A stretch of DNA of 64,000 nucleotides, taken from NCBI RefSeq assembly GCF_057098645.1, contig NZ_CM169472.1; one strand, written 5' to 3'. A program made the position numbers. Shown one piece after another: positions 22,601-25,600 of the stretch. The stretch's first letter is position 1. Every line of letters starts with the position of its first letter.

Positions 22601-25600
22601 GATAAGCCCTGTTTGCCACGCACGAAAACTTCGTATAACGGCCAGTAAACATTACTCATTTTGAATCTCCTTATGCGACCTTACAGGCATGTTGTTTTTG
22701 TGCATGGGCCAGCGCTGCTTCCCGTACCCAGGTACCTTCTTCCCAGGATTTACGTTTAGCGTCGAGCCGCTCCTGATTACAAATTCCGCGACCGTTAATT
22801 ACTTCGTTAAACTCCTGCCAGTCGATCTCACCAAAGCGGTAGTGACCGCTTTCAGTATCAAAATGCAGATCCGGGTCAGGAACGGTCATGCCGAGCATTT
22901 CAACCTGTGGAACGGTGTTATCCACGAAACGCTGGCGGAGTTCGTCATTGGTGAAACGCTTGATTTTCCAGGCGAGACTTCTGGCGCTGTTTGGCGAGTT
23001 ATCATCGTTTGGCCCGAACATCATTAAGGCTGGCCACCAGAAACGGTTAATGGCGTCTTGCAACATCTGCTTTTGAGCTTCGCTGCCCTGCGCCAGTGCC
23101 ATACAGGCTTCAAACCCCTGACGCTGGTGAAAACTCTCTTCTTTGCAGATTTTCACCATTGCTCTGGCATACGGGCCATAAGAAGTGCGGCATAACGCCA
23201 CCTGATTGACGATCGCTGCGCCATCCACCAGCCAGCCGATAACACCGATATCAGCCCAACTCAATGTCGGATAATTAAAGATGGAGGAATATTTCATCCG
23301 TCCGTCGAGCATTTTTTGGTAGATGTCTTCTCTGGCGCAGCCCAGTGTTTCGGCGGCGCTATAGAGATACAGACCATGACCGGCTTCATCCTGCACTTTG
23401 GCTAACAGAATGGCTTTACGCCGCAAGGTTGGTGCGCGAGTGATCCAGTTACCCTCAGGCAACATACCAACAATCTCGGAGTGCGCATGCTGCCCAATCT
23501 GGCGGATCAGTGTCTTTCGGTAAGCATCGGGCATCCAGTCCTGCGGCTCGATAGCCGTTTCCTGGGCTATCCGTTGCTCAAAGCGTTCTTCTTGGGTCAC
23601 GTCATCACCTTTACGATTCCAGTTTTCGTGAATTAATTAAAAACACGAATCACGTTGTTTTATGAAAGTTACACAATGGTTAACTAAAGTCACAAATTTT
23701 GTATGTTTGAACTGTGACGGATTTCGCACTCTATTTTGATAACTCATTATTTATCAGTGCATTAATGTTTTTAGTAGTTGATATACAGATCACGCAGTTA
23801 ACATTTCATTAAAATACGCCTTGCTTTTTATGATTCGTGATTTAACTATTAGCAACAGAAATGTGAAATATTTGGAGAGTAGCGATGCAGCAGTTAGCCA
23901 GTTTCTTATCCGGTACCTGGCAGTCTGGCCGGGGCCGTAGTCGTTTGATTCACCACGCTATTAGCGGCGAGGCGTTATGGGAAGTGACCAGTGAAGGTCT
24001 TGATATGGCGGCTGCCCGCCTGTTTGCCATTGAAAAAGGTGCCCCCGCCCTCCGCGCTATGACCTTTATCGAACGTGCGGCGATGCTTAAAGCGGTCGCT
24101 AAACATCTGCTGAGTGAAAAAGAGCGTTTCTATGCTCTTTCTGCGCAAACGGGCGCAACGCGGGCAGACAGTTGGGTTGATATTGAAGGTGGCATTGGGA
24201 CGTTATTTACTTACGCCAGCCTCGGTAGCCGGGAGCTGCCTGACGATACGCTGTGGCCGGAAGATGAATTGATCCCCTTATCGAAAGAAGGTGGATTTGC
24301 CGCGCGCCATGTACTGACATCGAAATCAGGCGTGGCGGTGCATATTAACGCCTTTAACTTCCCCTGCTGGGGAATGCTGGAAAAGCTGGCTCCAACGTGG
24401 CTGGGCGGAATGCCAGCCATCATCAAACCAGCCACCGCGACGGCCCAACTGACTCAGGCGATGGTGAAATCAATTGTCGATAGTGGTCTTGTTCCCGAAG
24501 GCGCAATTAGTCTGATCTGCGGTAGTGCGGGTGATCTGTTGGATCATCTGGACAGCCAGGATGTGGTGACTTTCACGGGGTCAGCGGCGACCGGACAGAT
24601 GCTGCGAGTTCAGCCAAATATCGTTGCCAAATCTATCCCCTTCACTATGGAAGCGGATTCCCTGAATTGCTGCGTACTGGGCGAAGATATCACCCCGGAT
24701 CAACCGGAGTTTGCGCTGTTTATTCGTGAAGTTGTGCGTGAGATGACCACAAAAGCCGGGCAAAAATGTACGGCAATCCGGCGGATTATTGTGCCGCAGG
24801 CATTGGTTAATGCTGTCAGTGATGCTCTGGTTGCGCGATTACAGAAAGTCGTGGTCGGTGATCCTGCACAGGAAGGTGTGAAAATGGGCGCACTGGTAAA
24901 TGCTGAACAGCGTGCCGATGTGCAGGAAAAAGTGAACACATTGCTGGCTGCAGGATGCGAGATTCGCCTCGGTGGTCAGGCGGATTTATCTGCGGCGGGT
25001 GCCTTCTTCCCGCCAACCTTATTGTACTGTCCGCAGCCGGATGAAACACCGGCGGTACATGCAACAGAAGCCTTTGGCCCTGTCGCAACGCTGATGCCTG
25101 CACAAAACCAGCAACATGCTCTGCAACTGGCTTGTGCAGGTGGCGGTAGTCTTGCGGGAACGCTGGTGACGGCTGATCCGCAAATTGCGCGTCAGTTTAT
25201 TGCCGACGCGGCGCGTACGCATGGGCGAATTCAGATCCTCAATGAAGAGTCGGCAAAAGAATCCACCGGGCATGGCTCCCCACTGCCACAACTGGTACAT
25301 GGTGGGCCTGGTCGCGCAGGAGGCGGTGAAGAATTAGGTGGGTTACGAGCGGTGAAACATTACATGCAGCGAACTGCTGTTCAGGGTAGTCCGACGATGC
25401 TTGCCGCTATCAGTAAACAGTGGGTGCGTGGTGCGAAAGTCGAAGAAGATCGTATTCATCCGTTCCGCAAATATTTTGAGGAGCTGCAACCAGGCGACAG
25501 CCTGCTGACTCCCCGCCGCACAATGACAGAGGCCGATATTGTTAACTTTGCTTGCCTCAGCGGCGATCATTTCTATGCACATATGGATAAGATTGCCGCT

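Follow-up and report, generated by a model that had tools for sequence, protein, structure and literature searches.

Predicted PaaX operators persist in the paaZ-paaA control region beside an apparently recent deletion of the inducer-forming gene in an Escherichia coli lineage of the O145:H28 type

The regulation of phenylacetate catabolism in Escherichia coli is well described: how its promoters are laid out, which operators PaaX uses and what the inducer is were established in this species more than 20 years ago. In strains K-12 and W, PaaX acts at operators of three promoters, Pa, Pz and Px, and its published binding site is TGATTC(N27)GAATCA (PMC9493321). According to reviews, PaaX is released by phenylacetyl-CoA and not by phenylacetate itself, and both the binding of PaaX in vitro and its release by phenylacetyl-CoA have been reported for E. 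coli. At Px and Pz, PaaX is described as a competitor of RNA polymerase, while its action at Pa is of a different kind, and Px is reported to be autorepressed. The listed regulators of the two divergent promoters include CRP. In addition, an ArcA-P site lies at the K-12 paaA promoter between -46 and +11 relative to the published start, and the start of Pz can be derived from an ArcA site at -62 to -42 (PMC3798270 supplement). Control by PaaX has also been reported outside phenylacetate catabolism, for the penicillin acylase gene of E. coli W and for styrene genes of Pseudomonas. Loss of the catabolic genes is known as well, and O157:H7 isolates have been tested as tynA-negative (PMC4640556).

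The region considered here lies in a 64-kb window, that is, the whole stretch of DNA that was analysed (64,000 nucleotides of contig NZ_CM169472.1, assembly GCF_057098645.1), and all positions given below are those of the window. Judged by its sequence, it is the orthologue of the K-12 paaZ-paaA control region, with Pz and Pa predicted to be controlled by PaaX. The Pa operator is base-identical to that of K-12, the near half of the Pz operator and its 15-bp box are intact, a Px operator is present, PaaX agrees in 313 of 316 residues, and K-12 and the window share the flanking genes and both the CRP and the ArcA element. The differences concern the far half-site at Pz (GAAATA in the window, GAAACA in K-12), the far half-site at Px (GAATCG as against GAAGCG) and the operon itself, which comprises 11 genes in K-12 but only five and an altered paaF in the window, the inducer-making gene being gone. 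A 15-bp PaaX box with the consensus WWTRTGATTCGYGWT is said to go back to Ferrandez et al. 2000. The elements of the control circuit are listed below.

23601..23884, 284 bp: paaZ-paaA divergent control region, between the paaA GTG and the paaZ ATG.
23614..23652, minus strand: PaaX operator at Pa, TGATTC (23652 to 23647), N27, GAATCG (23619 to 23614), reading towards paaA.
23642..23656, minus strand: 15-bp PaaX box at Pa, AACGTGATTCGTGTT, one mismatch to the reported consensus.
23655..23708, minus strand: orthologue of the ArcA-P site at the paaA promoter, mapped by sequence from the footprinted K-12 site.
23713..23728, no strand given: predicted CRP-like site TGTGA-N6-TCGCA, a consensus match only.
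23821..23849, plus strand: inferred Pz core promoter, -35 TTGCTT (23821-23826), -10 AACTAT (23844-23849), start at about 23857.
23827..23841, plus strand: 15-bp PaaX box at Pz, TTTATGATTCGTGAT, exact match to the reported consensus.
23831..23870, plus strand: PaaX operator at Pz, TGATTC (23831-23836), N28, GAAATA (23865-23870).
18946..18983, minus strand: PaaX operator at Px, TGATTC (18983 to 18978), N26, GAATCG (18951 to 18946).

The control region extends from the paaA start codon (GTG at 23600, minus strand) to that of paaZ (ATG at 23885), has the same length as in K-12 and differs from it by 22 substitutions (92.3% identity), none of which falls in the base-for-base identical segment 23601-23653. 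For strain C325, whose sequence is 100% identical, RefSeq gives the order paaZ/paaA...paaX/paaY. On the plus strand, the Pa operator reads CGATTC (23614-23619), a 27-nt spacer (23620-23646) and GAATCA (23647-23652), as a preliminary description of the raw sequence had it, and it ends 14 nt from the paaA start. It carries a single mismatch to the published site, and its half-sites are invariant among the 11 E. coli sequences aligned. An inverted TGATTC/GAATCA pair with halves about 26-28 bp apart is found with one mismatch at Pa, one at Px and two at Pz, where both mismatches fall in the far half. The TGATTC at 23831 near paaZ, also noted previously, is indeed present. Consequently, the earlier view that the region retains the PaaX operator architecture holds as far as the presence of the sites is concerned, but as a description it was incomplete: the Pz site is also two-part, and the Px operator had been overlooked.

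The operator limits rest on the review consensus, on the 15-bp box and on start sites back-calculated from the PMC3798270 supplement. The position of the ArcA site places the Pa transcription start at about 23659-23665, and the Pa operator then lies wholly downstream of it, at about +11 to +52 within the leader that is transcribed ahead of paaA. At Pz, the operator extends from about -26 to +14, overlapping both the -10 element and the transcription start of paaZ. These derived positions fit the action of PaaX described in the reviews. The sites are orthologous to those of K-12, in which the 15-bp box occurs as an exact match at both promoters, in the same two places. In the window, the mismatching base of the Pa box is a G at 23654. 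A reading of this A-to-G difference as decay of the box was rejected, the G being the majority allele in E. coli (9 of 11 sequences). The TGCGA-N6-TCACA block of the CRP-like site is conserved in 18 sequences from 12 or more genera, and the -35 and -10 hexamers of Pz are conserved across genera. A simple sigma-70 scan of the control region and the spacer between the paaK remnant and paaX returned nothing, as is expected for weak, activator-dependent promoters, and a terminator scan of the same two segments also returned nothing, a result that is uninformative.

The pattern GATTC-N26-28-GAATC occurs twice in the 64-kb window, where 0.23 matches are expected, and only 3 of 100 shuffles reached two. 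The matches are the Pa site and the site directly upstream of paaX (18947-18982). Elsewhere in the window no further strong two-part PaaX site was found. Lone TGATTC is not enriched over the same 64 kb (33 copies, 40 expected), and a looser pattern with up to three mismatches is at chance level (31 against 32). Because of this, the paaZ-side half-site is meaningful solely through its context and orthology. Comparison across species provides that context. Upstream of paaA, TGATTC-N26-28-GAATC[A/G] is present in all 34 sampled species of Enterobacterales. Counted as a site with no more than one mismatch within 120 nt upstream of the gene, the score is 34 of 34, as opposed to 1 of 46 in other taxa and a shuffle expectation of 0.02 per 34. 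Across these 34 loci, the Pa half-sites are invariant and the spacer of 26-28 nt is unconserved. The footprint across genera thus describes both the Pa and the Pz operators as two-part sites with invariant half-sites and a free spacer, and it also shows a far half at Pz that is consistently non-consensus, G[T/A]AACA.

The gene cluster that the control region serves in K-12 is incomplete in the window. The genes and remnants on either side of the operators are the following.

23885..25930, plus strand: paaZ, intact, 681 aa, 675/681 identical to K-12, no internal stops.
22671-23600, minus strand: paaA, intact.
22372-22659, minus strand: paaB, intact.
21617-22363, minus strand: paaC, intact.
21105-21602, minus strand: paaD, intact.
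20027-21097, minus strand: paaE, intact.
19272..20030, minus strand: paaF, running into the deletion junction in place of its own 3' end, 252 aa rather than 255, last ~8 residues different.
19297..19300, no strand given: deletion junction, 4-nt microhomology.
19045..19299, minus strand: paaK 3' remnant (pseudogene), last ~255 nt.
17994-18944, minus strand: paaX, 316 aa, intact, no stops, named PaaX in RefSeq.
17422-18012, minus strand: paaY, 196 aa, intact.

Mapping by BLAST against K-12 (position 7232 of L002 joined to 12184) shows that 4,952 bp are missing, comprising the 3' end of paaF, the first ~1,058 nt of paaK and, between them, the genes paaG, paaH, paaI and paaJ. In C325, RM12761 and RM13514, RefSeq marks the paaK remnant as "incomplete; missing N-terminus". 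The loss of PaaK, asserted in the preliminary description, is thereby confirmed, as are the statements that paaABCDE and paaZ, and likewise paaX and paaY, are intact: all are full length and free of internal stops. The products of paaA-E are 98-100% identical to those of K-12, and the proteins of paaA-E, paaZ, paaX and paaY taken together span 97-100%. The complete 14-gene cluster (paaZ, paaABCDEFGHIJK, paaXY) is not found, and with paaK truncated, the 64-kb window does not hold an inducible circuit that includes PaaK. Among 5,426 complete E. coli genomes, 25 share the exact junction, namely O145:H28 strains and close relatives. A literature search on a paa deletion in O145 strains yielded nothing relevant.

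The age of the deletion is bracketed by the sister strain UTME-3, which still carries paaG-K. Its identity to the window is 100% across the 384 bp of the control region and 99.92% across 17.6 kb. By this sequence comparison, the deletion in the O145:H28-type lineage appears to be very recent. Because UTME-3, with paaG-K in place, has an identical control region and the deletion is young, the retention of the operators is uninformative: decay has had no time to set in, and their persistence appears to reflect the youth of the deletion rather than selection. Other lesions are present as well. The window and UTME-3 share the nonsense mutation feaR W60*, and the annotations of C325, RM12761 and RM13514 likewise give feaR an internal stop. 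A stop at codon 669 of tynA is confined to the window, in RM13514 paaC is frameshifted and feaB interrupted by a stop, and UTME-3 carries independent lesions, with paaJ and paaK separated by an IS3 element and 7 bp inserted into paaF. Because feaR and tynA, and in relatives also paaC and feaB, have been inactivated, the whole phenylethylamine/phenylacetate pathway appears to be decaying stepwise in the lineage, with the remnant as an early stage of loss. This resembles the absence of tynA-feaB-paa from O157:H7 and other lineages, in that phenylethylamine and phenylacetate catabolism is lost in enterohaemorrhagic E. coli, and stepwise decay fits the complete absence of the region there. However, O157:H7 shows wholesale absence, whereas the loss here is partial, consisting of an internal deletion and nonsense mutations with the regulator and operators left in place.

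For the regulatory state of the remnant, the published biochemistry suggests the following. PaaX, a GntR-type repressor, would bind the Pa, Pz and Px operators, and nothing but phenylacetyl-CoA, which PaaK makes, would release it. With paaG-paaJ and most of paaK deleted, phenylacetate would no longer be converted into the inducer, unless a second phenylacetate-CoA ligase is encoded outside the 64 kb analysed, and the surviving paaABCDE, the altered paaF and paaZ would be expected to stay repressed and non-inducible. The operators would be intact owing to the recency of the deletion, not to maintenance. That the remnant is locked in the repressed state is a reasonable reading of this biochemistry, and some basal, leaky transcription may occur. 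Taken as a whole, the explanation of a canonical paa control region, a recent deletion and a remnant expected to be repressed is considered very probable. The logic is that of lac operon mutants unable to form allolactose, which represent an uninducible state: repressor and operators are intact, the step that yields the true inducer is missing, and the substrate cannot induce. In contrast to the lac mutants, the natural deletion also destroys the pathway, so that no obvious physiological consequence follows. Physiologically, the repressed state is moot: nothing is left for the surviving enzymes to act on, and feaR and tynA, which feed the pathway, are inactivated as well. An experimental parallel exists in K-12, where a tynA knockout grown on phenylethylamine cannot make phenylacetate and shows paa expression lower by a factor of 13 to 67. 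The control region is in itself an ordinary, characterised one of little novelty. What is added is the footprint across genera, the exact map of the paa deletion with a bracket on its age, and the apparent stepwise decay of the pathway in this pathogen lineage. For studies of PaaX, O145:H28 strains could provide a non-inducible control that arose naturally.

An unlikely variant of this explanation is that the remnant is not fully locked, with the C-to-T change at 23869, perhaps together with 23872, weakening PaaX at Pz, so that the basal level of paaZ would be raised independently of phenylacetyl-CoA while paaA to the altered paaF stay repressed. The change affects the far half-site at Pz and is specific to the window's lineage. 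On the paaA strand, the position is a G in 16 of the 17 other sequences of the alignment across genera and in all eight E. coli from outside the lineage, and a substitution at such a conserved position could weaken the repression of paaZ. Among the 11 aligned E. coli, 23869 and 23872, the latter adjoining the ribosome-binding site, are the only lineage-specific substitutions in the 284 bp, and a 41-mer with the pair 23869T/23872T is confined to 26 genomes of the lineage. However, the near half is invariant and, like the 15-bp box, perfect, while the far half, always found at N28 in E. coli and the other genera aligned, is the weakest half-site to begin with and also the most variable (GAAACA in K-12 and seven other E. 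coli, GTAACA in most other genera, GCAGCA in Cedecea neteri). The chance that at least one of two changes falls within the 24 bp of half-sites among 284 bp is about 0.17. Furthermore, the 23869 change is shared with UTME-3; it thus predates the deletion and is no response to it. PaaZ is an aldehyde dehydrogenase/hydratase, and a more elaborate scenario, in which the inducer-forming enzyme is lost first, the repressor and three operators persist and the 23869 change may partly free paaZ, leaving PaaZ alone for another use, is more doubtful still.

Returning to the recent deletion as the preferred explanation, the persistence of paaX, paaY and the operators could also be ascribed to selection for a role outside phenylacetate catabolism, either through other PaaX targets or through the PaaY thioesterase. 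Both genes are intact and encode identical proteins in five of five lineage members, in which paaC, feaB, feaR and tynA have been hit, and the literature reports PaaX boxes beyond the paa cluster. Nevertheless, the comparison covers a tiny sample and a very short span of time, chance alone would leave two genes (~1.5 kb) intact among a handful of lesions, and the window contains no other strong two-part PaaX site. Moreover, O157:H7, presumably a sister lineage, does without the whole cluster, paaX included, and its genomes match only the pdxI flank. Selection of this kind is therefore regarded as highly improbable. The idea that the inverted repeat at Pa arose by chance or forms an RNA hairpin, rather than being a protein operator, can be practically dismissed: the repeat does sit in the transcribed leader and the looser DNA pattern is about as frequent as chance predicts, but the leader RNA folds no better than shuffles (-9.3 kcal/mol, z = +0.27), invariant half-sites without compensatory changes around an unconserved spacer in 34 species are the signature of a protein site and effectively refute this idea, and the two exact matches in 64 kb both lie at paa promoters. 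Rfam gave no family at the gathering threshold, and its sole match, to a yeast snoRNA model (E=0.054), was taken as chance.

Two minor observations concern the operators themselves. The Pz and Pa boxes form a 13-nt inverted repeat that is 92% complementary. The Px operator, which ends 1 nt ahead of the paaX ATG, was aligned with those of K-12, UTME-3 and O19:H7, and the three substitutions that separate the adjacent gene product from K-12 PaaX are at residues 121, 216 and 315. The GAATCG allele in its far half was considered as a lineage-specific improvement of the operator and rejected as such, since a 43-mer with this allele has exact matches in at least 1,017 genomes and it is a common polymorphism.

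The paaZ–paaA control region is an already known regulatory region, carried here by a lineage with a recent, lineage-specific deletion in the paa operon. The E. coli binding sequence of the repressor PaaX has been published as TGATTC(N27)GAATCA (PMC9493321). Sites of this type occur at the promoters of paaA (Pa), paaZ (Pz) and paaX(Y) (Px), as follows.

paaZ–paaA spacer, 23601-23884: the exact gap between the paaA GTG (23600, minus strand) and the paaZ ATG (23885, plus strand).
Pa operator, 23614-23652: CGATTC (23614-23619), a 27-nt spacer and GAATCA (23647-23652); read toward paaA, TGATTC-N27-GAATCG.
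Pz operator, near half TGATTC at 23831-23836: followed toward paaZ by N28 and the far half GAAATA.
Px operator, the third site, 18983 to 18946: TGATTC-N26-GAATCG, ending one base before the paaX start codon.

The motif positions named in the preliminary description, CGATTC-N27-GAATCA at 23614-23652 and TGATTC at 23831-23836, were confirmed in the window sequence, and the Pa operator read toward paaA has one mismatch to the published site. The strict pattern GATTC-N26-28-GAATC has only two matches in the whole 64-kb window, against 0.23 expected: the Pa operator and 18947-18982, immediately upstream of paaX. The single TGATTC is uninformative alone (33 copies in the window, 40 expected), and relaxed PaaX patterns occur there at chance frequency. 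A 15-bp PaaX box, WWTRTGATTCGYGWT, reportedly goes back to Ferrandez et al. in 2000. This box is exact at both promoters in K-12; in the window it is exact at Pz (23827-23841) and has one mismatch at Pa (23642-23656). Decay was ruled out as the source of that mismatch, G at 23654 being the majority allele (9 of 11 aligned E. coli).

The TGATTC near paaZ stands, but not as the lone half-site first described, since a second half follows after 28 nt in K-12, other E. coli and other genera. K-12 and seven other E. coli have GAAACA as this far half, and most other genera have GTAACA; its spacing is constant across the sequences, and it is placed immediately before the paaZ ribosome-binding site. 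The window's GAAATA arises from a C-to-T change at 23869, where the paaA strand carries G in 16 of 17 other aligned sequences. A 41-mer holding 23869T and 23872T, which detects the two changes jointly and not singly, was found only in the 26 genomes of the window's lineage. The change in the far half could weaken repression of paaZ. The Px far half is GAATCG, a common E. coli allele, as against GAAGCG in K-12.

The spacer is 284 bp long in both the window and K-12, and none of the 22 substitutions between them falls within 23601-23653, a stretch spanning the entire paaA-side repeat. Among E. coli lineages, the spacer (23601-23884) is far more diverged than the flanking coding DNA (92.3% vs ~97.8% identity to K-12), with invariant operator half-sites. 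A PaaA scan using one genome per species yielded 80 loci, which were searched for TGATTC-N26-28-GAATC[A/G] with at most one mismatch and no more than 120 nt upstream of paaA. All 34 loci from Enterobacterales (Citrobacter to Serratia, Providencia and Xenorhabdus) carried the site, as did 1 of 46 from other taxa; shuffled controls gave 0.02 per 34. Across loci the half-sites are invariant, the spacer is unconserved in sequence and 26-28 nt in length, and the right half-site adjoins the paaA ribosome-binding site. Invariant halves around a free spacer indicate a protein-binding site, not an RNA stem. Shuffled sequence folded as well as the paaA leader RNA (z = +0.27). The gathering threshold was not reached by any Rfam family, and the single match, to a yeast snoRNA model at E=0.054, was read as chance.

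Footprinted ArcA sites run from -46 to +11 at paaA and from -62 to -42 at paaZ relative to the published transcription starts (PMC3798270 supplement). Start sites in the window were derived by mapping these ArcA-site sequences onto it.

Pz, derived start ~23857: operator at about -26 to +14, covering the AACTAT -10 element, which is conserved, as well as the start.
Pa, derived start ~23662-23665: operator at about +11 to +52, wholly within the leader.

At Pa, the ArcA mapping gives 23662-23665, and a separate estimate from the conserved TAACTT hexamer and a CRP-like site gives 23659. At Px, which is autorepressed, and at Pz, PaaX and RNA polymerase compete, and PaaX acts differently at Pa (PMC9493321); the derived geometry agrees with such competition at Pz and not at Pa. 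CRP and IHF are listed co-regulators of both Pa and Pz, and a conserved TGTGA-N6-TCGCA at 23713-23728 is likely a CRP site.

The window is E. coli DNA. Between 17000 and 26000, aligned sequence is 100% identical to C325, a strain of the deletion lineage, apart from an inverted 175-bp segment; most other strains show ~97.8% identity and ~5 kb of extra DNA. The RefSeq gene order in C325 is pdxI, paaY, paaX, paaK fragment, paaF, paaE, D, C, B, A, paaZ, tynA. The window joins position 7232 (paaF) of the K-12 locus to 12184 (paaK), with a 4-nt microhomology at 19297-19300. This deletion of 4,952 bp relative to K-12 takes the last ~33 nt of paaF, the whole of paaG, paaH, paaI and paaJ, and the first ~1,058 nt of paaK, leaving a paaF remnant of 252 aa with an altered C-terminus. 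As had been described, PaaK is missing and paaABCDE, paaZ, paaX and paaY are intact; compared with K-12 these genes have full length and no stops. The exact junction occurs in 25 of 5,426 complete E. coli genomes, which are O145:H28 strains and close relatives.

In O19:H7 730V1, whose operon is intact, a partial duplication annotated as 2Fe-2S protein and enoyl-CoA hydratase fragments lies at the paaE/paaF boundary (8958-9480 of that locus), and this boundary therefore seems rearrangement-prone. An 11-bp GC-rich stem (TCTGGCCCTGG...CCAGGGCCAGA, 19004-19037) is kept beside the deletion, 8 nt past the paaK stop codon. It went uncalled in a terminator scan because it has no T-run, and it may curb transcription running on from Pa into paaX.

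The operators had been described as retained beside a broken operon. They are present, but this is uninformative, because the deletion is very recent: the sister strain UTME-3 matches the window fully across the 384-bp control region and at 99.92% across 17.6 kb, and it keeps paaG-paaK, although an IS3 element sits between paaJ and paaK and its paaF carries a 7-bp insertion. Operator decay would not be expected over the time since the deletion, and "retained" carries no meaning. A 1,310-bp IS3-family element at 8804-10113 of the window is 100% identical to that UTME-3 copy.

The inducer is phenylacetyl-CoA, not phenylacetate (PMC9493321; a second review concurs). With paaK lost, phenylacetate would not be convertible to phenylacetyl-CoA, and without the latter PaaX should stay on all three operators. 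Support comes from the published in-vitro inducer specificity and from a K-12 tynA knockout on phenylethylamine, in which no phenylacetate is made and paa transcripts are 13- to 67-fold lower. Basal leakage of the paa genes is possible, and the examination for other phenylacetate-CoA ligases covered 64 kb of the genome. The regulatory state matters little in any case, because the epoxidase is without substrate and PaaZ, absent PaaG, is without oxepin-CoA. The earlier interpretation, including genes perhaps locked in the repressed state, is partly supported as a whole.

Lesions extend beyond the operon. The gene feaR (30245-31150), whose product activates tynA and feaB, carries a nonsense codon (W60*, 30422-30424) where O19:H7 has Trp; UTME-3 has the same stop, and the annotations of UTME-3, C325, RM12761 and RM13514 give feaR an internal stop. 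In the amine oxidase gene tynA (26178-28451), G to A at 28184 creates a stop at codon 669 (28182-28184) in the window; C325, RM12761, RM13514 and UTME-3 have G at this site and an intact tynA. RM13514, another member of the deletion clade, has a 1-bp deletion frameshifting paaC (~window 21824) and an internal feaB stop (~window 29559), evidence that what remains of the pathway is still decaying. The whole pathway is eroding in the window's lineage. In O157:H7 genomes the only part of the region with a match is the pdxI flank, and O157:H7 isolates are tynA-negative (PMC4640556).

Two further differences were observed in the window. The 175-bp segment 17192-17366, lying in the gap that separates paaY from the pdxI start codon, is the reverse complement of what C325, UTME-3, RM12761 and RM13514 carry there, and its orientation in the window was found in 0 of 5,201 E. 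coli genomes matching the flanks. Its ends have no inverted repeats (the BLAST pieces overlap by 1 nt only), with just a single 8-nt inverted pair in the vicinity. The inversion, which would cut pdxI off from the sequence natively upstream of it, may reflect a rearrangement specific to the strain, a misassembly or an edit made to the window. Eight bp of the window at 51610-51617 (GGCAAGGC) are absent from C325, whose abgB is annotated as frameshifted around this position; the window copy may therefore be the intact one.
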